A stretch of 64,000 bases of DNA from an uncultured Candidatus Obscuribacterales bacterium (GTDB taxonomy: Bacteria > Cyanobacteriota > Vampirovibrionia > Obscuribacterales > Obscuribacteraceae). Positions 3,976 through 41,284 of this stretch are shown piece after piece; the first letter of the stretch is position 1; the number at the start of each line of letters is the position of its first letter. The position numbers were made by a program, and so were the translations under genes. Under the pieces are notes generated by a model. It was not told the DNA's origin. It did not search any database and worked only from the letters and a program-made list of their open reading frames with translations. The stretch lies in assembly GCA_964572515.1 (NCBI GenBank), contig CAZNEW010000006.1:33267-97266 (forward strand), given 5' to 3'.

Positions 3976-4049
<74 letters not shown>

Positions 4050-4061
4050 GTTTCTATTTAG

Positions 4062-4087
4062 TACATCCGTTAACGGTAATGGTTTTT
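4062..4087. repeat. degenerate copy (c) of the GTTAAC-centred palindrome, between the two tRNAs
   Basis: TACATCCGTTAACGGTAATGGTTTTT. The right arm and core are conserved and the left arm is truncated. Confidence 0.6.
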
Positions 4088-4112
4088 CGGTTGGATCTAT
4101 AATAAGAACTGT

Positions 4113-4185
4113 GGGGGATTGGCTCAGTTGGTAGAGCGTCTCGTTTGCACCGAGAAGGTCAGCGGTTCGAATCCGCTATCCTCCA
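4113..4185 (+). tRNA. tRNA-Ala(UGC): tRNA-Ala (anticodon TGC)
   Basis: Acceptor GGGGGAT/ATCCTCC with the G3:U70 wobble (Ala identity element), anticodon loop TTTGCAC, T-arm with GGTTCGAATCC. Confidence 0.95.
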
Positions 4186-4288
4186 AATTTTTAGAACAGA
4201 AAATACAATCATCCTTTCCATAGTCCTTTAGGAGGATATGGAAGAAAACGATATTTGAGAATCTTGTTTCAGCAGGAGAACAAATATC

Positions 4289-4540
4289 GTGGAAGAATGG
4301 GAAAAATTCAGACTTAGATTTTCGAAAGCCGTAAGAGACAGACGAAACGCACTTGGACTTTCACAGGGAGCACTTGCAAAATCGTCTGGATTCAGTCGCT
4401 CTTATATCGCAGATGTTGAGCGCGGGGCACGAAGCATAACGTTGAAAAACGCTTGGCGACTTGCATATTGTTTACAGATTGAACTGGCCGACCTTTTGCC
4501 AACTTCTGAATTAACTTCAGTAGCAGCCCAGTCAGCTTAG
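4289..4540 (+). CDS. XRE-family helix-turn-helix transcriptional regulator
   Basis: HTH_3 pattern LGLSQGALAKSSGFSRSYIADVERGARSITLKNAWRLAYCL. GTG start with AGGAGA about 10 nt upstream. Confidence 0.8.
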   Translation: MEEWEKFRLRFSKAVRDRRNALGLSQGALAKSSGFSRSYIADVERGARSITLKNAWRLAYCLQIELADLLPTSELTSVAAQSA

Positions 4541-4650
4541 TTAAAATTTTGTCAGCAGCGCAGGTCTTCCTGATGAGACTTCTTTCCGGCAAGGTATATT
4601 AGTAATGGCACCAAGGAGTCCATTTTACGGTCGCAACCATTACGGTCTGC

Positions 4651-7059
4651 ATGCCTTCGCAAGCAAAGAATTCAAAGAAGAAATCAACTCGCCAAGAGTT
4701 AAGCAGCGAGCAACTTCGTAAAGTAATCGAAGCATCTCCAAACGGCATCATCATGGTCAATGACCGTGGTGAAATCGTGCTTGTAAATCTGCAAATCGAA
4801 AAATTATTCGGTTACACCCGCGAAAATCTCGTGGGCAAAACCATTGAAATATTGGTGCCTGATTCAGCCAAGGCGATACATCCAAAACAACGCGAAAGCT
4901 TTTTTACAAACCCCAGCACAAGAAGTATGGGTGCTGGTAGAGATTTATTCGGCTTAAAATCGGATGGTTCTTTAATTCCAATTGAAATTGGACTTAATCC
5001 ACTTGACATGCAGGGCGGAAAATTCGTGCTTGCTTCAATAGTCGATATTACTGAGCGAAGAAAGTCAGAACAGGCGCTAATTCAAGCAAAAGAAGAATTA
5101 GAAACCAGAGTGAGCGAGCGCACAAAAGAGCTTAAAAAGGCAAAGGATCAGGCACAGGAAGCCTCGCGACTCAAATCTGAATTTTTAGCCAATATGAGCC
5201 ATGAAATAAGAACACCCATGAATGCTGTAATAGGAATGTGCAATATCCTTTCAAAAACACATCTTGATTCGCGCCAACAACAATACACAGACAATATTCG
5301 CGACGGCGCCAACACTTTGTTGACCATCATCAATGACGTACTCGACTTCAGCAAAATAGAAGCGGGGCATATGGAAATCGAAGCAATCGATTTTGATGTG
5401 GTGCGATTGGTCGAAAGTACTTGCGAAATGCTTGCAGCAGCAGCACGGCACAAAAAACTTTCGGTACTTGCAGAAATTGACGAAGACATTCCATCTCAGC
5501 TAAGAGGGGACCCCGAGCGCCTCAGGCAAATATTAATCAACTTACTTTCAAACGCAATTAAGTTTTCCACTCATGGCAATATCGTTGTAAAAACCAGACT
5601 AGAAAAGGTTCAAGGCTCAAATGCACTGGTCTTTTTCTCTGTTAAAGATGAAGGTATTGGAATAAGCAAAGAGCAATTAGATCGGCTATTCAAACCATTC
5701 GAACAGGCAGACGGTTCTATTAGTCGGCGCTTTGGCGGAACAGGATTGGGTCTTAGCATTTGCAAACGCCTGGTCCAATTGATGAACGGAAACATAGGCG
5801 TAAACAGCACTTCACAAAAAGGCTCAGAGTTTTGGATTCAAGTTCCATTTGAAATTCGATCGGCAAGCAATAAACCATTTCTTCCAGACAGCTTAAGATC
5901 GGCTCGGGTACTGATTGTTGAAGACGATCCTTATGCATCGCAAATTCTAAGCAAATATATTTCTTCCTGGGGGATTCAAAATTCTTGCGCACACACAGCC
6001 AAAGATGCTGTAACAGCCATGAGGCAAGCTTATGTAGAAGAGAAAAAATTCGACATTGTAGTTGTCGATTACATGCTTCCCGACAAAAATGGTATAGAAC
6101 TTGCGCATCAAATTTTTAACGACCCTGCAATTAAAGATGCCAATCTTATTTTGTTGACAGCCTTTGACACCCCAGGCTTGGGCAAGCAAGCTATTGCAAA
6201 TGGTTTCAAAGCTTATTTGACTAAACCAGTCAGACGCTCGAGCTTGCTCGATGCACTGAGCGCTAGCTGGGGCTTCGAGCACCCTATAATCTCGCCCCAA
6301 TCAATAGATGGTGCTGCGGAAGCTCAGTCTAGATTGCCTGACAGAACAGAATTGATCCTGGTAGTCGAAGATTATCCGATTAACCAACAAGTGGCTGAGT
6401 TATACCTTGAACAACTTGGATTCAAGTGCCACATCGCAAATAATGGAATCGAAGCAGTGCATGCAATTAAAAACTACAATTACGCCCTGGTCTTGATGGA
6501 CTGTCAGATGCCAGACATGGACGGCTATGTCGCATCGACAAAAATCAGAGAGCAAGAGGAAAAAGCAAATTTGAAAAAACGAATTCCAATTATTGCTCTT
6601 ACTGCCCACGCGATGGGCGGCGATCGCGAAAAGTGCTTGAACGCCGGAATGGACGATTATCTAGTTAAACCAATTGAGCTTGAGCACTTGCAAACTATGT
6701 TGCAAAAGTGGCTGCCAGAAACAATTCCTTTATATATAGATGTGGTTCGCATAAATTCCAAATATGGCAAGGCCGCCCAAACCTTGCTGGAGCGCTATTT
6801 GAAAGATGCCCCTCCAGTGCTCAAAGAAATTCTTGACAGTTTTCAAGTTGACGATCGCTTGACTTTTCAACGATCTCTGCACGGATTAAAAGGCATAAGC
6901 ACTACAGTTTGCGCCAAAGTCCTCGTTGACCGGTGCGTACAAATTGAAAATGCTTCCTACGATCAAAAATGGAACGAAGTGCGTGAGCAGGTTCGTAAGC
7001 TAGAGACAGAAATGGCAGAAACACTGGCTTTTATCGATTCCAAAAACCTAAACCGTTAA
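4651..7059 (+). CDS. hybrid sensor histidine kinase (PAS - HisKA - HATPase_c - REC - REC - HPt)
   Basis: H-box FLANMSHEIRTPMNAVIG, G-box GGTGLGLSICKRL, two receiver domains (VVVDYMLPDKNG; LMDCQMPDMDG), HPt motif LHGLKGISTTV. The last codons KNLNR-stop lie inside palindrome copy d. Confidence 0.9.
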   Translation: MPSQAKNSKKKSTRQELSSEQLRKVIEASPNGIIMVNDRGEIVLVNLQIEKLFGYTRENLVGKTIEILVPDSAKAIHPKQRESFFTNPSTRSMGAGRDLFGLKSDGSLIPIEIGLNPLDMQGGKFVLASIVDITERRKSEQALIQAKEELETRVSERTKELKKAKDQAQEASRLKSEFLANMSHEIRTPMNAVIGMCNILSKTHLDSRQQQYTDNIRDGANTLLTIINDVLDFSKIEAGHMEIEAIDFDVVRLVESTCEMLAAAARHKKLSVLAEIDEDIPSQLRGDPERLRQILINLLSNAIKFSTHGNIVVKTRLEKVQGSNALVFFSVKDEGIGISKEQLDRLFKPFEQADGSISRRFGGTGLGLSICKRLVQLMNGNIGVNSTSQKGSEFWIQVPFEIRSASNKPFLPDSLRSARVLIVEDDPYASQILSKYISSWGIQNSCAHTAKDAVTAMRQAYVEEKKFDIVVVDYMLPDKNGIELAHQIFNDPAIKDANLILLTAFDTPGLGKQAIANGFKAYLTKPVRRSSLLDALSASWGFEHPIISPQSIDGAAEAQSRLPDRTELILVVEDYPINQQVAELYLEQLGFKCHIANNGIEAVHAIKNYNYALVLMDCQMPDMDGYVASTKIREQEEKANLKKRIPIIALTAHAMGGDREKCLNAGMDDYLVKPIELEHLQTMLQKWLPETIPLYIDVVRINSKYGKAAQTLLERYLKDAPPVLKEILDSFQVDDRLTFQRSLHGLKGISTTVCAKVLVDRCVQIENASYDQKWNEVREQVRKLETEMAETLAFIDSKNLNR

Positions 7060-7070
7060 CGGTTTAGGTT
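7042..7070. repeat. GTTAAC-centred palindromic repeat, copy d (arms CCTAAACCG/CGGTTTAGG)
   Basis: AAAAACCTAAACCGTTAACGGTTTAGGTT. Its central TAA (7057-7059) is the stop codon of the histidine kinase gene. It sits between the kinase and the 23S leader. Confidence 0.85.
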
Positions 7071-7299
7071 CTCCATATAGAGAGGAATATAAATAGGAAT
7101 AAGACTTTCATTGTCAAGATAATACCCAAAACGCACAGCCCGTGCCGAATAAAGATATTGATTACAAGAGAGTTACATATCGGATACAAATAGGTGAAAC
7201 ATGGAGTGGTATCTGATACTATTGTATTTCTGGTGATGCAACACATCTGATTGATGTATGTTTCACCACCGACTGCAAAAGCGGTCGGAAAAAAATTGT

Positions 7300-7347
7300 G
7301 TACCCTGAAAACTGCATATTGAGAATCCGTATCCACATTTATACCAA
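7300..7347 (+). promoter_or_regulatory. 23S rRNA leader strand of the long-range processing stem
   Basis: GTACCCTGAAAACTGCATATTGAGAAT (7300-7326) is complementary to 10454-10480, with 1 mismatch and 1 G:U. TATCCAC and ATACCAA in 7327-7347 pair with 10411-10433. Confidence 0.75.
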
Positions 7348-7430
7348 TGTTTTGGATTGATACAAATTCAATCCGCTTATCCAGATGCACTAAGAGAACT
7401 GTCCTGGTTCGAAGTGACATCCTGGATTTT

Positions 7431-10394
<2,964 letters not shown>

Positions 10395-10410
10395 AATAAA
10401 ACAGATTTAT

Positions 10411-10480
10411 TTGGTATTTAAGTGGATAACCCGAAATTCAATTCGAAATTTCAATTCTCAATGTGCAGTTTTCAGGGCAC
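10411..10480 (+). promoter_or_regulatory. 23S rRNA trailer strand of the processing stem
   Basis: TTGGTATTTAAGTGGATAACCCG and ATTCTCAATGTGCAGTTTTCAGGGCAC are reverse-complementary to leader 7300-7347. Confidence 0.75.
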
Positions 10481-10527
10481 GCAGAGTGATTCTTCACGAA
10501 TCACACGCGCGAGCGACCTGACACCTT

Positions 10528-10644
10528 TCTTGGTGCCAAAGCGTCTGGAACACACCCGTTCCCATTCCGAACACGAAGGTAAAGACGGACAGCAGCGACA
10601 ATACTTGGTGGGAGACTGCCTGGAAAGATAGCCCGGTGCCAGGA
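10528..10644 (+). rRNA. rrf: 5S ribosomal RNA
   Basis: Helix I TCTTGGTGCC/GGTGCCAGGA. Conserved CCCGTTCCCATTCCGAACACGAAG core. About 117 nt. Confidence 0.9.
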
Positions 10645-38042: not shown

Positions 38043-38771
38043 TTAGAACAATTCATCTCTGATGAGATTGCTCAACAACTCATTTATAGATTCTCTCCGA
38101 CAATCAGCCACCTCCTGCACCCGCTCCTCGAGCTTGGGCTCCAGATATAATCGGTAAGCCTTTGGAAGTGGCGTTAAAATGTCTTGATAACAAACTATTT
38201 GCCCGGCTGAAATTGCAAACTTAGCAACTCTTTTTTCCAACAAACTGCTCGATGAAATAGCAGCCAAGGGAATTCTTGACTGGCTAACTTCAATTTCTTC
38301 TAAATTCGCACTATCGAAAAGCTCCCCGCTTTTCATTTCCTTTTTGCAGTACACTACTTTTCCCTTAGCTTGCAGTTTAGCTCCCATTTCAAAACGAGCA
38401 GCATCGTAAACTCTCTGACGTTCTCGCTCTTCTTCAATCTCTTTAGCCATAAAAGAATGAAAAAGAACAGAACCGGTAAAAAAGCTTCCAATTAATGCCA
38501 AAGACCATTTACAGTATCGTTTTATTTTGGCTATGCCAACGGGACAATCACGCGTGATTACCGTTCCATCAGGTCTTCTATAAAGTGAGAAACAATAGCC
38601 AGTATCGCTTCCAATCAGCTTTACCGCTTCAGATGTAGTCATCTCGGAAATGTTGTAAACATTCAAATGACACTGCGAGCAGTATCGCTTCGTATCGGTT
38701 CCTTTCATACTATCCCATGGAACTTTGCATGGCGAAGCAATACGAATATCATCGAGATTAATATCACTCAT
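38043..38771 (-). CDS. Cys-rich N-terminal domain - TM - SAF-like domain - RHH-like tail protein (paralog A)
   Basis: N-terminus IRIASPCKVPW...RYCSQCHLNVYNISEMT...DGTVITRDCP, central TM helix, SAF-like KVVYCKKEMKSGELF...AISAGQIVCYQDI, C-terminal LEPKLEERVQEVADCRRESINELLSNLIRDEL. Confidence 0.6.
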   Translation of the reverse strand: MSDINLDDIRIASPCKVPWDSMKGTDTKRYCSQCHLNVYNISEMTTSEAVKLIGSDTGYCFSLYRRPDGTVITRDCPVGIAKIKRYCKWSLALIGSFFTGSVLFHSFMAKEIEEERERQRVYDAARFEMGAKLQAKGKVVYCKKEMKSGELFDSANLEEIEVSQSRIPLAAISSSSLLEKRVAKFAISAGQIVCYQDILTPLPKAYRLYLEPKLEERVQEVADCRRESINELLSNLIRDELF

Positions 38772-39504
38772 ATTTTTTCACCTTTTTCAAAATCCAAGCA
38801 CGCATCAGCTTTGATACCGATGTTTTCTTCTTCTTGGCTATGTCATCAATTTGTTGTAATTCTTCGGGATTGAGATTCAAATCAATTCCCTGCTCATATT
38901 TCCTAAAAATACTGTCTGAATCAGGCATTATGTCTTGCTCAGTCAAAATAGAATCAGCTGCAATGTCTTTGCTCAATCTCTTTCCCAAAACCAAATCCCA
39001 GTTCCAGAGCGCTCCCATAGGAACCTGGCGTGGACTGATTTCAAGACAGTCTAAATCGTCATTGCGCACACGATAACCAACTGGAAGATTTTTGTTTACC
39101 TTGATTACGCTTGCTTTTACAAGACCTCCGGCCTCAAGGTCTTTCATTCGTTCTATGCGATTCATTTCCTCACTAGGAAATAGTTTCGACCACTGAATCA
39201 TGGCGAGTAAAATTCCAATCAAGAAACTCGAGACGGCTGCATATAAATATCGCATTTGTCTGAATTCGATAGGACAGTCTTTTGTAATCACGGTCCCATC
39301 GCGCCTGCGCCAGAGTCTGATGCAAAGCCGCCCTTCGGTTTTGGTAATCAGTTGGGCCACTTCTTCTCGTGTCATCTCGCTGATGTTATAAACATTGAGC
39401 GAACACTTTGCACAATTGCGCACGCGATTATCACCTTTCATCTTCCGCCAGGAAGCTTTGCAAGGCGAAGCAATACGCACGTCTTCAAGATTGAAATCGT
39501 CCAT
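38764..39504 (-). CDS. Cys-rich N-terminal domain - TM - SAF-like domain - RHH-like tail protein (paralog B)
   Basis: Start set at MDDFNLEDVRIASPC by alignment with paralog A (MSDINLDDIRIASPC). Same architecture. 8-nt overlap with paralog A (operon). The ORF track extends to 39561. Confidence 0.6.
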   Translation of the reverse strand: MDDFNLEDVRIASPCKASWRKMKGDNRVRNCAKCSLNVYNISEMTREEVAQLITKTEGRLCIRLWRRRDGTVITKDCPIEFRQMRYLYAAVSSFLIGILLAMIQWSKLFPSEEMNRIERMKDLEAGGLVKASVIKVNKNLPVGYRVRNDDLDCLEISPRQVPMGALWNWDLVLGKRLSKDIAADSILTEQDIMPDSDSIFRKYEQGIDLNLNPEELQQIDDIAKKKKTSVSKLMRAWILKKVKKYE

Positions 39505-39625
39505 AGCAATATTCTCGATGTAAAAAACTGCCCCCAAATTCCATGCTAGTAGCAGCATCAAAATTCGGTACTAGGGAAAACCCTAGCTTGCAACAACTGT
39601 TGACAATCGCACGAGATGAAACCCA

Positions 39626-39634
39626 TGTTATAAT
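39626..39634 (+). promoter_or_regulatory. extended -10 promoter element (TGTTATAAT) upstream of the reverse transcriptase gene
   Basis: TGnTATAAT consensus seen directly. A TTGACA at 39600-39605 is 23 nt away, too far for a canonical -35. The predicted start is near 39641. Confidence 0.5.
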
Positions 39635-39638
39635 TGCC

Positions 39639-39710
39639 CCGATTACGATTCATGACCGGCGAGTCGCCTGTCTTAGTCCAAGGTATCCCCTTAAAGGTGC
39701 ACGTAATCGG
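39639..39710 (+). promoter_or_regulatory. structured 5' leader bracketed by a 9-bp inverted repeat (CCGATTACG / CGTAATCGG)
   Basis: Arms at 39639-39647 and 39702-39710. Small internal hairpins (GGCG-AGT-CGCC; AAGG-TATCC-CCTT). The right arm ends 6 nt before the RT ATG. Confidence 0.45.
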
Positions 39711-39716
39711 TAACAG

Positions 39717-40889
39717 ATGAAAATCAAATCGTCTAAGACATTGGATCAAATCTGCGAGGAACTGGGACTAAGGTCCCAGTTCTTGTTAGAGCTGTCGAAG
39801 CGCGCTTCAAGCCTTTATACGACTTACGATATTGCAAAACGCGCTGGTGGCGTACGCACTATTTCCGTACCTGATAAAGGACTCAAATCTGTTCAAAGAT
39901 CTGTTCTTGACATTGTTTTCTCGCGTTTTAAAATGCCAGCTCATGTACATGGATGCGTCAAAGGTCGCTCTATTGTTACTAATGCCAGAGGACACACCGA
40001 TCAAACACTGGTCATAAATATAGATCTGAAGAATTTCTTTGGAACCATTAGATATGAAACAGTTTTTGAAATCTTCAAAAATCAGTTTCATTTCGATGAG
40101 CATTCTTCCGAAATTTTTGCTCGCCTCACCACATATGGTGACTGTCTTCCGCAAGGCGCTCCAACAAGTCCAACTCTAGCTAATATAGCAGCACTAAAAC
40201 TAGATACCGCCATACTGAATATTTGTAATGAAAATCTCGCACCTGGCACATTTCATTATTCTCGATATGTTGATGACATAAGCATTTCGGGTGGACGAGA
40301 ATTAGGGCTACTGATACATGCCTTTTACGAATCTATTTTTGATTCAGGATTCAAAGCTAATACCAAAAAGTTACGCATTTCAAGACAATCTGATAGACAA
40401 AAGGTGACTGGAGTCACAGTAAATAAAAAACTAAATCCTCCAAAAAAATTATTACGCAAAGTTAGACAACAGGTTTATTACTGTAAGAAATTTGGCGTCG
40501 CACAACACTGTCACCAGGTTGGAATAGATCCAATTTCTTTTCAAGAAAAAATCTATGGCGAGCTGGGAATGATCGGAATGATGCGCCCCGACCTTGAGAC
40601 ATGGTTCAATCTTGATTTAAATCAAGCACTAGAAACCTATCATCCCAACGACAACAGTGAAGAACAAAAATTGCTCTTTTTGATAGAAGCAATAGACCAA
40701 GAGCTAAAAATTGAATTTGAATATGATTACTTTGCCGAGAATCAAGATAACAGCGTCCTGGTGGTACCGGTAGAAATCATCATGACTGAACGAGGTCAAA
40801 AGTATTTAAGAGGATACCAACTAGCACCAGAACAAGGTTGGGAAAAGTACTTCGTGAGTGAAATTAAAGATCTGCGCGCAGTCAAATGA
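39717..40889 (+). CDS. retron-type reverse transcriptase with WYL-like C-terminal extension
   Basis: YDIAKRAGGVRTISVPDKGLKSVQRSVL, NAxxH (TNARGH), NIDLKNFFGTI, LPQGAPTSPTLANI, YVDD (40266-40277), RQKVTGVTVNKKLN. About 80 extra residues: IEFEYDYF...VLVVPVEII...GQKYLRGYQL...WEKYFVSEIKDL. Confidence 0.85.
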   Translation: MKIKSSKTLDQICEELGLRSQFLLELSKRASSLYTTYDIAKRAGGVRTISVPDKGLKSVQRSVLDIVFSRFKMPAHVHGCVKGRSIVTNARGHTDQTLVINIDLKNFFGTIRYETVFEIFKNQFHFDEHSSEIFARLTTYGDCLPQGAPTSPTLANIAALKLDTAILNICNENLAPGTFHYSRYVDDISISGGRELGLLIHAFYESIFDSGFKANTKKLRISRQSDRQKVTGVTVNKKLNPPKKLLRKVRQQVYYCKKFGVAQHCHQVGIDPISFQEKIYGELGMIGMMRPDLETWFNLDLNQALETYHPNDNSEEQKLLFLIEAIDQELKIEFEYDYFAENQDNSVLVVPVEIIMTERGQKYLRGYQLAPEQGWEKYFVSEIKDLRAVK

Positions 40890-40891
40890 TT

Positions 40892-41284
40892 TCAGCCCTC
40901 AATGATGTCGGCGATAGTCGACTCTTTTAACTCGCATTCGACCATCTCAAGCATATTATCGAGACGTTTATGAAGAGAGCAAAGCTTGTCTTTATGTTCT
41001 GGGAAATTGAGCGGACATGTTTTGATTCTCTCAATTGGATCTACAAGATTCACAACTTCTAGAACCGGTATGTCTGCTGGTTTTCGTCCAATTTTATAAC
41101 CACCCTGAGTGCCTCGCCGCGACTCGATGATAGTGGAGCGTGAAAGACCTTGCAAAATTTTGGATAAGTAGGCGGGCGGTATTTTAGTCTGGCAGGAGAT
41201 TTCCTTAGCGTTGAAATACTGTCCTTCGTTTCGAGAAAGAAAAACTACTGCAATCAGCGCATATTCTACAGTCTGGGAAAACAT
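40892..41284 (-). CDS. Rrf2-family transcriptional regulator
   Basis: N-terminal winged helix TVEYALIAVVFLS...AKEISCQTKIPPAYLSKILQGLSRSTIIESRRGTQGGYKI. Cys residues in CPLNFPEHKDKLCSLH. Confidence 0.8.
   Translation of the reverse strand: MFSQTVEYALIAVVFLSRNEGQYFNAKEISCQTKIPPAYLSKILQGLSRSTIIESRRGTQGGYKIGRKPADIPVLEVVNLVDPIERIKTCPLNFPEHKDKLCSLHKRLDNMLEMVECELKESTIADIIEG

Follow-up and report, generated by a model that had tools for sequence, protein, structure and literature searches.

Retrons are understood as the combination of a reverse transcriptase (RT), a noncoding RNA (ncRNA), and a toxic effector. The locus described here raises the question of whether a single gene, encoding an RT with an extra C-terminal domain and standing alone on its strand, can be regarded as a retron, and if so, of what kind. 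Within the window, which is the whole 64-kb stretch of DNA that was analyzed, the locus is probably a single-gene retron in which the RT is fused to a WYL domain and served by a miniature ncRNA, with no effector encoded in cis, and which represents a lineage of Melainabacteria/Obscuribacterales. The features on which this reading is built are as follows.

38764-39504/39561, - strand: SAF-domain gene, neighbor of the RT-WYL gene
39626..39634, + strand: extended -10 element TGTTATAAT, read from the sequence and placing the predicted transcript start at 39641 or an adjacent base
39641..39708, + strand: predicted miniature retron ncRNA (msr-msd), 68 nt (covariance model and family conservation)
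39641..39647, + strand: a1 repeat GATTACG (a1/a2 pairing across the family)
39654..39672, + strand: conserved msr stem-loop GACCGGCG-AGU-CGCCUGUC, with an 8-bp stem and an invariant AGU triloop (covariation)
39673..39701, + strand: variable 29-nt segment, putative msd, i.e., template for a short cDNA (length kept, sequence variable)
39702..39708, + strand: a2 repeat CGTAATC (pairing with a1)
39717-40889, + strand: open reading frame (ORF) for the 390-aa RT-WYL protein
39717..40631, + strand: retron-type RT domain, aa 1-305, with fingers, palm, and thumb (motifs, Pfam, PADLOC, Foldseek)
40656..40886, + strand: predicted WYL-fold domain, aa 314-390, one helix and a five-stranded Sm/SH3-like barrel (Pfam, structure model, Foldseek)
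40892-41284, - strand: Rrf2 regulator gene, convergent neighbor of the RT-WYL gene
40907..40932, + strand: terminator-like hairpin and T-run, lying within the 3'-terminal part of the convergent Rrf2 gene (consensus scan)

The RT belongs to the retron clade. All of the motifs from which a sequence-only reading of this DNA had assigned the 390-aa ORF to retron-type RTs are present, namely, VTNARGH (NAxxH), LPQGAPTSP, YVDD, and RQKVTGVTVN, and they are near-invariant in an alignment of 38 family sequences, where N89/A90/H93, P145-S151, Y184/D186/D187, and V230/T231/G232 are invariant or nearly so. Residues D103, Y184, D186, and D187 are invariant in these 38 sequences, which share only 39 to 83% identity, and the enzyme is predicted to be catalytically intact and active. 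Profile searches matched the RT to Pfam RVT_1 (E = 1e-18) and placed retron RT models at the top (E = 1e-83 to 1e-45), the best of the PADLOC models being RT_III-A (PDLC02946) at 277 bits, with 223 bits for the Ec107-like model; NCBIfam gave no above-threshold match for the RT-WYL protein. The full-length structure model (pLDDT 90.1) has the retron RTs Eco2, Ec86, Eco7, Ec83, and Ec78 as its top Foldseek matches, and the top matches in a sequence search of the PDB were Ec67 and Ec86. An origin as a group II intron RT was rejected on the score of TIGR04416, which is only 40 bits against a cutoff of 300, and structures of group II and diversity-generating retroelement (DGR) RTs rank under all of the retron RTs in Foldseek. 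The retron-clade profiles, the low group scores, and the absence of a common neighboring gene together place the RT outside group II introns, DGRs, and the known retron types with an operon-encoded effector.

The element upstream of the RT gene is a conserved, covarying ncRNA. The sequence-only reading had drawn attention to a 9-bp inverted repeat ending 6 nt before the ATG and had likened it to retron a2/a1 repeats. The coordinates confirm the repeat (CCGATTACG/CGTAATCGG at 39639-39647 and 39702-39710, with 54 nt between the arms and 72 nt overall), and the likeness extends to the whole family, which has a covarying ncRNA of 66 to 72 nt and a promoter set to start at a1. Since the entire family has an ncRNA of this size, the 72-nt span is no obstacle to reading the arms as a1 and a2. 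The element lies just upstream of the ATG in 13/13 family loci examined and has a fixed order: a1 (GATTAYG), the hairpin GAC-NN-GCG-AGU-CGC-NN-GUC, a variable segment of 27 to 33 nt, and a2 (C-RTAATC). In the window, the RT-WYL ORF starts 8 nt past the end of a2 (39708), and the a2-to-ATG spacing ranges from ~3 to 26 nt across loci. A covariance model of the element has one match in the 64-kb window (73 bits, E = 1.7e-13), and the hairpin pattern occurs once there against 0.06 occurrences expected. The exact element pattern was absent from all 80 generic retron RT loci scanned, and Rfam models for retron msr or any further RNA family had no match here up to E <= 10, a result that carries no information, as the element is not in Rfam. 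All 120 matches of the shorter pattern TGACNNGCGAGTCGCNNGTC in metagenome contigs were dismissed as chance occurrences in high-GC coding DNA, none having a1/a2 or an RT nearby, and none of 13 matches in viral contigs was genuine. A chance GATTACG adjoined three of the 120 metagenome matches, the pattern being too short for a database of that size.

Compensatory pairs across the homologous loci are found in both helices. The a1/a2 helix is 100% paired in 12 sequences, with a C-G to U-A compensatory change in 2 and a U-G wobble in 1; in loci L088 and L224, a2 is CATAATC and is paired with GATTATG and GATTGTG, respectively. The hairpin core GCGAGTCGC is invariant in the family, and the NN pairs of the stem covary, one of them occurring as G-C (6 sequences), A-U (5), or U-A (1) and the other as U-A (5), A-U (1), or C-G (1), with 5 mismatches. 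Paired cells make up 97.2% of the element alignment versus 26 to 46% when the partners are slid, and the covariation score was matched by 0 of 500 shuffles; compensatory changes are found in only 3 of the 15 pairs, most positions being invariant, and the symmetrical changes in the hairpin would also fit a palindromic DNA site. Minimum free energy folds recover the closing stem in 11/11 sequences folded; 10 of these folds also contain the conserved hairpin. G39647, the last base of a1 (alignment column 9), is invariant in 13/13 loci and is a candidate branching (priming) G from its position and conservation; formally, the same base is able to form a pair with the invariant C of a2. Apart from an invariant C that precedes a2 by two bases, the sequence of the variable segment is not conserved, and its hairpins are weak and variable.

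Transcription signals are placed consistently around this element. The extended -10 element named in the sequence-only reading is indeed found at 39626-39634; the arm of the inverted repeat, which that reading had beginning at the predicted start near 39641, begins at 39639, and 39641 is the first base of the conserved core GATTACG. Across the family, a TAnnnT hexamer ends 6 to 9 nt upstream of a1 in 11/13 loci, compared with a background of 5.1%, and 7 of these 11 loci also have a -35 hexamer with at least 5 of 6 positions matching at a spacing of 17 to 18 nt. A consensus promoter scan missed the window's own site, whose TTGACA (39600-39605) is 23 nt away. Downstream, the terminator-like hairpin begins 18 nt past the RT stop codon; since the scan of the region turned up 3 sites of this kind versus 1.6 expected, it is a weak candidate for the possible end of an ncRNA-RT transcript.

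Retron RT profiles cease to align at ~aa 290 to 320, leaving an extra tail of ~85 aa, in agreement with the sequence-only reading, which had put the extension past the thumb at ~80 residues and had proposed a WYL/Sm-like barrel for it. The tail, which follows a disordered linker (aa 307 to 313), has the WYL fold in a predicted structure that superposes on solved WYL domains, and the sequence match is borderline. Pfam WYL (PF13280) matches the full protein at aa 322 to 387 with E = 0.0016 and 18.8 bits, under the gathering cutoff of 21.8, and the tail scanned alone with 23.2 bits (E = 6.7e-5), over that cutoff; 11 of 30 family tails match the same model at E <= 1. A profile of the tail found weak matches in the PDB (8bnv, E = 0.05; BrxR 7qfz, E = 0.29). 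The AlphaFold model of the tail has a pLDDT of 89.9, and nearly all of its top 33 Foldseek matches in the PDB are WYL proteins (BrxR, PafBC, CapW, DriD, WYL1; TM 0.65 to 0.77), the best being BrxR 7qfz (TM 0.75, rmsd 2.2 Å). The best matches to PafBC, DriD, CapW, BrxR, and WYL1 superpose over ~74 to 80 residues with TM 0.70 to 0.77 and rmsd 2.2 to 2.8 Å. The tail is kept in 37/37 aligned homologs, and F334, Y336, A350, P351, P371, and W375 are conserved family-wide.

The WYL fold binds single-stranded DNA (ssDNA) in PafBC, DriD, and CapW, and several of the structures matched by the tail are ssDNA bound (DriD 7tzv, CapW 9c5g). The five known sensors are HTH-WYL-WCX transcription factors, whereas the tail has neither HTH nor WCX and is joined to a polymerase. 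It also has the motif LRAFQL...GW..F where known WYL sensors have WYL...R.F, the canonical Arg of the R.F strand being replaced by Trp (W375, read from the alignment), and its ligand chemistry may thus differ from that of a canonical WYL domain. A search of 1.84 billion representative sequences with the tail profile recovered stand-alone and PafBC-type WYL proteins, the nearest sequence relatives being stand-alone mini-WYL proteins of ~95 aa. These were considered as a possible split version of the RT-WYL system and rejected, as in three plasmid contexts they occur with AAA ATPases or recombinases and not with RTs.

The family comprises ~75 full-length homologs that keep the WYL tail, with 39 to 52% protein identity, and every homolog carrying a taxon name is from Melainabacteria/Obscuribacterales or is cyanobacterial. 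A scan of genome contigs with generic RT peptides from the family alignment returned, among the matches listed, only ordinary retron RTs, and these loci served as a negative and comparative set. The genes flanking RT-WYL in the window are both on the - strand, as the sequence-only reading had it, and are ordinary chromosomal genes. PADLOC gave no defense matches in the genes neighboring RT-WYL in the window, and a search for a hidden effector with PADLOC and Pfam among the SAF, Rrf2, 331-aa, 113-aa, HMUDK, and Clp_N proteins found no defense match. No neighboring gene is common to the 13 homologous loci, which share the RT gene only, and the context differs at nearly every one: L224 has the genes for ribosomal proteins L35/L20 and TatC, L083 has those for citrate synthase and aconitase, and others adjoin toxin-antitoxin genes, a tRNA gene, or a phage terminase gene. 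The claim that the system has no effector therefore stands for the window and most loci but not for the family as a whole, because one subclade (4/13 loci) has a convergent, opposite-strand gene encoding a Clp_N-domain protein. The Clp_N protein of L084 has a sub-threshold match to wHTH-PRTase_assc (17.7 bits versus a cutoff of 27). With ordinary neighbors and no PADLOC matches in the window, no link to phage defense was seen there.

Two hallmarks of a retron are thus present, i.e., RT motifs and HMM matches and a contiguous, same-strand ncRNA closed by a1/a2. The third part of the tripartite definition, an effector protein or enzymatic domain, is absent, there being no common neighbor, no PADLOC match, and a noncatalytic WYL barrel. 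Among known systems, the nearest RT profiles are those of the Ec107-like (clade 2) and III-A (PADLOC) retrons. Membership in that group was rejected on account of too low a group HMM score and the missing PRTase partner: the family scores 246 to 280 bits on its best PADLOC model, PDLC02946, and 223 to 230 bits on RT_Ec107-like, with almost no margin over the models of types XI, XII, and XIII, whereas true III-A/Ec107-like members score 383 to 451 bits with a margin of 60 to 110 bits over the next model. The type III PRTase-like/winged-helix partner was found neither in the window nor at the other family loci. The ncRNAs of the RT-WYL family and of these retrons are alike in being upstream, on the same strand, and closed by a1/a2, and they share the GCG-AGU-CGC msr hairpin, the core being found in 13/13 family loci and in 14 Ec107-like or III-A loci; this core was derived as a group feature in the present analysis and not from the literature. 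It lies inside a1/a2-flanked ncRNAs of 159 to 206 nt upstream of RT_Ec107-like RTs and upstream of the RT_III-A RT in L026, and a1 is followed directly by G in 5/7 a1/a2 pairs checked in these relatives. The RT-WYL family differs in the length of its ncRNA (66 to 72 nt versus 159 to 206 nt), in the extra C-terminal WYL domain, and in its hosts, which are Melainabacteria, whereas Ec107-like/III-A retrons are found mainly in Bacillota. From the msr hairpin and the nearest RT models, the RT-WYL lineage appears to be a divergent relative of the Ec107-like/III-A retrons.

Fusion of a further domain to a retron RT has precedents in type I-C (Ec67/Eco2, RT-Toprim), type XI (RT-protease), and type XII (RT-TIR), which likewise consist of one gene with an upstream ncRNA and an extra domain after the thumb; Eco2 (type I-C) matches the RT part best, both in structure and in PDB sequence. 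The domain added in those types is enzymatic and serves as the toxic effector, whereas the RT-WYL tail is modeled as a small barrel of the kind that binds ligands or nucleic acids, with no catalytic fold. Three loci in which the query matched beyond aa 330 (L067, L071, and L007) were considered as further WYL fusions and proved to be RT-TIR and RT-protease retrons, i.e., examples of fused-domain retrons among the relatives. An association between retrons and WYL proteins has been described for the TXI_C2like retrons, in which a protease-less RT is recurrently linked to WYL proteins and has a compact, a1/a2-flanked predicted upstream ncRNA (Toro 2026, bioRxiv 10.64898/2026.05.14.725207). According to the same work, these WYL proteins, present in 37% of loci, are encoded by ORFs of their own and have PafBC-type folds, the ncRNA folds into three stem-loops with 25 base pairs, and the retrons, a type XI-like clade, are exclusively from Bacteroidota. 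In the present family, by contrast, the WYL domain is part of the RT protein, searches revealed no HTH, the hosts are Melainabacteria, and the nearest models are III-A/Ec107-like. Membership in TXI_C2like was rejected on profile scores, with 241 bits for RT-Protease_XI models versus 277 bits for RT_III-A, and on the fusion and the Melainabacteria/Obscuribacterales affiliation of the named homologs.

A mechanism can be proposed for such a retron. The promoter would fire at ~39641 to give a single transcript, the first 68 nt of which would be a miniature msr-msd RNA made up of an a1/a2 stem of 7 to 9 bp, the AGU-triloop hairpin, a 29-nt and largely unstructured template, and the invariant G ending a1. 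The hairpin would be the RT recognition element, inherited from an Ec107/III-A msr. The RT would bind it, prime from the 2'-OH of the invariant G, and reverse transcribe the short template, yielding a branched, single-stranded msDNA of some 25 to 45 nt; both the synthesis of this msDNA and its size are what we infer from the predicted parts. To our knowledge, a template of 27 to 33 nt without a stable msd hairpin is far shorter than that of any retron; the shortest characterized msDNA is reportedly that of Ec48, at 48 nt. The fused WYL domain might then hold the ssDNA product or the ncRNA, or might sense a competing nucleic acid ligand, and some output would thereby depend on the state of the msDNA. 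Binding of the RT's own cDNA or ncRNA by the WYL domain, like a role as a sensor or in defense, is speculation on our part. As the locus encodes no enzymatic effector in cis, candidates for the output would be an unlinked partner, the Clp_N-domain protein of one subclade, or the ribonucleoprotein itself. In its boldest form, which we put forward tentatively and as less than an even prospect, this would be the smallest natural retron, with a 68-nt ncRNA giving rise to an msDNA of ~30 nt that is read by the RT's own WYL domain. It would be an effector-less sensor of a self-made ligand, with a regulatory output or one through an unlinked partner such as Clp_N and not abortive infection, in a lineage that Melainabacteria would have retained for some function that is not the sequestration of a toxin.

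The same parts could also belong to an orphan or domesticated retron that makes a small msDNA and in which the barrel is an additional RNA-binding or oligomerization surface, offsetting the shortened msr/msd, while the element does a nondefense job on the chromosome or serves an unlinked effector. We consider this rather unlikely, although several observations favor it. The nearest relatives, the Ec107-like retrons, are described as being without recurrent accessory genes (Mestre 2020, PMC7736814; Toro 2026 preprint, bioRxiv 10.64898/2026.05.14.725207), in which they resemble the RT-WYL family. Loci such as L224 and L083 lie among housekeeping genes, and the window's neighbors have no PADLOC match. 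The two derived traits, the miniature ncRNA and the extra barrel, occur together, and the seeming limitation of the family to one bacterial order at 39 to 52% identity is compatible with long residence. However, all of the known WYL structures among the top fold matches are modules that sense ligands or nucleic acids, and the closest stand-alone relatives of the tail are found in ATPase operons beside recombinases, a context typical of conflict systems. The toxin-antitoxin, tRNA, or phage terminase genes beside some loci, and a context that changes at nearly every locus, also count against this reading.

An improbable alternative is that the element is a cis-regulatory leader, with the a1/a2 stem and hairpin either governing how well the RT mRNA is translated or how stable it is, or serving as a binding site through which RT-WYL regulates itself, and with the RT acting on other substrates. 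Only 8 nt separate the 68-nt element from the ATG, close enough that the a1/a2 stem might mask the ribosome-binding region; the variable segment has no long msd hairpin of the kind typical of retrons; and the very high invariance of the hairpin suggests recognition by a protein rather than structure alone. Yet the hairpin is homologous to one within the full-length, a1/a2-flanked ncRNAs of the nearest RT groups, the order a1-G-hairpin-variable-C-a2 is exactly retron-like, and the NAxxH and VTG motifs, which are retron-specific contacts to msr RNA, are invariant. The variation in a2-to-ATG distance likewise argues against a fixed translational switch. Decay would account for the missing effector, the very short ncRNA, and the lack of an Rfam or NCBIfam match above threshold, if the locus were a remnant that had lost most of its msd and gained a fortuitous C-terminal extension. 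That reading was already disfavored and is very hard to sustain, as the promoter position is conserved and catalytic residues, tail, and ncRNA are all intact in ~75 full-length homologs at 39 to 52% protein identity, which requires purifying selection on each of the three.

The reading of the locus as a single-gene retron with a fused WYL domain and a miniature ncRNA has several consequences. The literature searched on retrons with WYL proteins and on RT-WYL in Melainabacteria held no description of an RT-WYL fusion, and from its sequence features, this retron variant appears to be new. A conserved, effector-less lineage with an ssDNA-sensing fold on the RT would test whether msDNA can act as an internal ligand as opposed to a toxin clamp, and RT-WYL could give a handle on the unexplained “orphan” Ec107-type retrons. 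With a 68-nt ncRNA, one essential hairpin, and a protein of 390 aa, it would rank with the smallest known retron scaffolds, a point of relevance to retron-based genome editing. For Melainabacteria, a sister group of Cyanobacteria that has received little study, the locus also adds a defense-like retroelement.

The gene for the RT-WYL protein, a reverse transcriptase (RT) with a C-terminal WYL-like tail, lies in this setting:

38043-38771, minus strand: SAF-domain gene with a Cys-rich N-terminal motif
38764-39504, minus strand: tandem paralog of the preceding gene, with the same motif
39626-39634, plus strand: promoter box TGTTATAAT, read from the sequence
39717-40889, plus strand: RT-WYL open reading frame (ORF), 390 aa
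42784-43785, minus strand: PF18723 protein (HMUDK_hel, 5-hmdU DNA kinase helical domain; full-length match, E=9e-106)

The RT motifs reported for this ORF in the sequence-only reading are present as described, and Pfam places RVT_1 at aa 39-235 of the full protein (E=1e-18). The top model in PADLOC, a defence-system profile set, is RT_III-A PDLC02946 (277 bits), with the type XI, XII, XIII, and Ec107-like models close behind; the retron RT models align only up to about aa 300. NCBIfam retron models match with scores under their cut-offs, and the NCBIfam group II intron maturase model reaches 40 bits, where its cut-off is 300. In the confident AlphaFold model (pLDDT 90.1), the RT body runs to aa 306; residues 307-313 are a disordered linker, after which come a helix (315-327) and five strands (331-389). 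The closest PDB structures are the retron RTs Eco2/Ec67, Ec86, Eco7, Ec83, and Ec78, which outrank group II intron, DGR, and DRT enzymes, and a PDB sequence search agrees.

A search of 5.8 billion proteins returned approximately 75 full-length relatives, which are 366-409 aa long (380-404 in most cases) and 38-52% identical, along with two closer ones (98% and 83%). Beneath these, coverage falls to approximately 70%, corresponding to ordinary retron RTs that have no tail. All named relatives are from Melainabacteria, Obscuribacter(ales) or, in one case, a cyanobacterium. D103, Y184, D186, and D187 are invariant across a 38-sequence family alignment, as are N89/A90/H93 and V230/T231/G232, which complete the catalytic and retron-specific set. 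Judged by its sequence, the RT is an intact retron-clade polymerase.

The WYL-like fold claimed for the tail is borne out by structure matching and by conservation. Sequence gives thinner evidence than structure. In the full protein, Pfam WYL at aa 322-387 is subthreshold (18.8 bits against a cut-off of 21.8); scanned alone, the tail reaches 23.2 bits, over the threshold, and 11 of 30 family tails match WYL at E<=1. Modelled by itself, the tail has a pLDDT of 89.9, and its 33 best Foldseek matches are almost without exception WYL proteins, including BrxR (7qfz; TM 0.75, rmsd 2.2 A), PafBC, CapW, DriD, and WYL1, with ssDNA-bound forms among them. A PDB profile search with the tail gave weak matches only. 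Residues F334, Y336, A350, P351, P371, and W375 are conserved in the 38-sequence alignment, and the family pattern is L..LK..I..E....F.Y......VAP.E...D..G...LRAFQL.P.QGW..F....I..L. Against 1.84 billion representatives, the tail profile retrieves the family first and then many stand-alone proteins of approximately 95 aa sharing LRaFQ..GW..F, several of them labeled "WYL domain-containing" in Pfam or RefSeq, as well as PafBC-type and HTH-WYL proteins. HTH and WCX partner domains are absent from the tail, which, on the predicted structure and these sequence matches, we assign to a divergent subfamily of WYL-fold domains.

The nearest tail relatives outside the family are those stand-alone proteins (P0137-P0147 and similar), which also have a PRPGY tail. 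Three of their genes are found in plasmid contexts:

L227, 956-1246: stand-alone WYL-like protein gene
L228, 4001-4294: stand-alone WYL-like protein gene
L229, 3875-4294: stand-alone WYL-like protein gene

Some plasmid copies are in operons with AAA-family ATPases (Deinococcus, Aliarcobacter), and others adjoin resolvase/integrase genes (Deinococcus, a haloarchaeon). These loci may be uncharacterised conflict systems.

Upstream of the RT, the 9-bp inverted repeat proposed earlier is present at 39639-39647 (the arm with a1) and 39702-39710 (the arm with a2), and it belongs to an element found in all 13 family loci retrieved through the exact-protein index, on which the comparative statements about this region rest. 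The 5' part reads GATTAYG, 5-6 nt, T, and GAC-NN-GCGAGTCGC-NN-GTC; the 3' part reads 27-33 variable nt, C-RTAATC, 3-26 nt, and the start codon. The a1-to-a2 span is nearly constant (66-72 nt). The window and all the other family loci contain the exact hairpin pattern, which is missing from the 80 generic retron RT loci compared; scans of two large contig collections added no family loci among the matches listed. A covariance model of the element has a single match in the window's 64 kb (73 bits, E=1.7e-13). Across 12 aligned sequences, pairing in the two helices is 97.2%, and with slid partners it is 26-46%. The a1/a2 stem carries compensatory changes (C-G to U-A twice, to U-G once), and two hairpin pairs covary (G-C in 6, A-U in 5, and U-A in 1 sequence at one; U-A, A-U, and C-G at the other), with a further CA/UG combination in family locus L226. 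None of 500 shuffles matches the observed covariation score, which derives from few variable pairs. Minimum-free-energy folds recover the closing stem in 11 of 11 sequences and the hairpin in 10; the variable segment folds into weak, inconsistent hairpins only. A second perfect 8-nt inverted repeat, TGTCTTAG/CTAAGACA (39669-39676 and 39733-39740), joins the 3' side of the hairpin to RT codons 6-8 and may be due to chance.

In 11 of 13 loci (background, 5.1%), a1 is preceded by a TAnnnT hexamer whose end lies 6-9 nt away, often with a good -35 hexamer at a spacing of 17-18 nt. This placement, which fits the transcript start proposed near a1 in the window, suggests that the RT-WYL transcript very probably begins at a1. 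Sequence comparison thus shows a conserved leader with predicted structure, retron architecture, and a putative promoter positioned at its start.

Outside the family, the covariance model had one weak match, upstream of a Streptococcus oralis RT. Pursuit of this match revealed a GCG-AGU-CGC core within a longer stem in 14 of the 80 generic loci, where it precedes the RT by 150-330 nt; approximately 0.1 matches would be expected by chance in the same amount of upstream sequence (our estimate). The loci are:

L010, L013, L025, L026, L034, L041, L042: GCG-AGU-CGC stem-loop upstream of RT
L043, L050, L052, L058, L060, L069, L078: the same

The eight RTs tested from these loci are genuine members of RT_Ec107-like (383-423 bits) or, for L026, of RT_III-A PDLC02946 (424 bits). 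Clear a1/a2 repeats, 8-14 nt in length, are present at seven of the loci, five of which have a G directly after a1. Rfam holds no model for this stem-loop, which looks like an RT-recognition hairpin common to the Ec107-like/III-A lineage. Its presence in a1/a2-flanked loci indicates that the RT-WYL hairpin is homologous to an msr stem-loop of an established retron lineage, and this homology is strong support for the view that the 68-nt element is a shrunken msr-msd (the retron template RNA). The msr hairpin is found in both groups, but the a1/a2-closed element is 66-72 nt in the family, and a1 and a2 enclose 159-206 nt in the Ec107-like/III-A loci. By profile score, the family is not a member of those groups: the best PADLOC model gives the four RT-WYL proteins compared 246-280 bits, with hardly any margin over other types, whereas true members reach 383-451 bits and lead the next model by 60-110 bits.

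The neighbouring genes of RT-WYL are on the opposite strand, as had been noted; a SAF-domain gene precedes it, and an Rrf2 regulator follows after 2 nt. The window's other neighbours are unknowns and the 5-hmdU-kinase-like protein; PADLOC and Pfam detect no known defence genes among them, which agrees with the reported absence of an effector. An all-against-all ORF comparison of 12 loci leaves the RT as the sole common gene, a Clp_N-domain protein excepted, and only L081 (83% identity) is syntenic with the window. Neither a PRTase nor a winged-helix partner was found in the family-locus ORF comparison or by PADLOC and Pfam on the window neighbours. The locus is thus shown to be without a cis effector.

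A Clp_N-domain gene, absent from the window, adjoins RT-WYL in 4 of 13 loci:

L087, 7158-8273, minus strand: Clp_N-domain gene
L089, 7146-8273, minus strand: Clp_N-domain gene
L226, 7186-8271, minus strand: Clp_N-domain gene
L084, 5349-5831, minus strand: Clp_N-domain gene

In the first three, which belong to one RT subclade, the protein is approximately 365 aa and its gene is convergent, abutting or overlapping the RT stop codon; in L084 the gene encodes 160 aa and lies on the upstream side of the RT, divergent from it. Between L087 and L089 the protein is 37.6% identical, in otherwise unrelated surroundings. The protein has no PADLOC match and no Pfam domain in its C-terminal two-thirds, and it is a candidate subclade-specific partner. 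Some other family loci adjoin HigB/HigA-type toxin-antitoxin pairs, a tRNA gene, or a phage terminase gene, and others adjoin ribosomal-protein or TCA-cycle genes; thus, the evidence for mobile defence cargo versus a long-term resident is mixed.

The HMUDK_hel domain normally goes with thymidine hypermodification in phage DNA; here the surroundings of its gene are chromosomal, the RT is 1.9 kb away, and the gene is kept in L081. Also kept there are the tandem SAF genes (N-terminal motif, ASPC..W..M.G....R.C..C.LNVYN.SEMT), which are divergent from the retron promoter region. The rRNA locus at 3976-10644 is unusual in having a histidine kinase gene between the spacer tRNAs and 23S:

upstream of 4651: tRNA-Ile(GAT) and tRNA-Ala(TGC), which usually occupy the 16S-23S spacer
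4651-7059, plus strand: hybrid histidine kinase gene, 802 aa
7431-10396: complete 23S
10529-10644: 5S

No 16S was detected in the whole 64-kb window; minus-strand ORFs, including an AhpC/TSA-family peroxiredoxin, lie upstream of the spacer tRNAs.

From established retron biochemistry and the retron RT structures matched by the model, we infer that the RT would recognise the msr hairpin, that the invariant G at the a1 end would prime it, and that the 27-33-nt segment would be copied, from next to a2, into a short branched msDNA. As this segment is short and has little structure, most of the product would be single-stranded. A shrunken msd and an added ssDNA-binding fold co-occur in this lineage, and ssDNA-bound structures among the tail matches are the basis for ssDNA binding by the WYL domains of PafBC, DriD, and CapW. 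For these reasons we favour a barrel that would hold or read the enzyme's own product or compete it against foreign ssDNA. As rivals, this could be an orphan or domesticated retron whose barrel is just an additional clamp for RNA or a surface for oligomerisation, or the leader could be a cis-regulatory element only. That the locus is a relic is contradicted by the conservation of RT, tail, and leader, all three of which are kept. We consider the identification of the locus highly probable and msDNA synthesis somewhat probable; a link of the WYL domain to nucleic acid is tentative, and a defence role is possible at a similar level, short of an even chance.

Type III retrons are PRTase-linked, and the Ec107 branch has no associated protein (Mestre et al. 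2020, PMC7736814); WYL is not mentioned in that work. The UG/Abi survey mentions a WYL-like domain solely in a gene neighbouring UG2. Our literature search, which was not exhaustive, found no published description of a retron RT-WYL fusion or of a retron ncRNA of approximately 68 nt. A 2026 preprint describes protease-less type XI-like retrons of Bacteroidota that have compact upstream ncRNAs and, in 37% of loci, separate WYL proteins (10.64898/2026.05.14.725207). The RT-WYL family differs from these in clade, host, and architecture, its WYL domain being fused rather than separate, and the WYL-linked retrons of the preprint make a functional link between RT and WYL topical.
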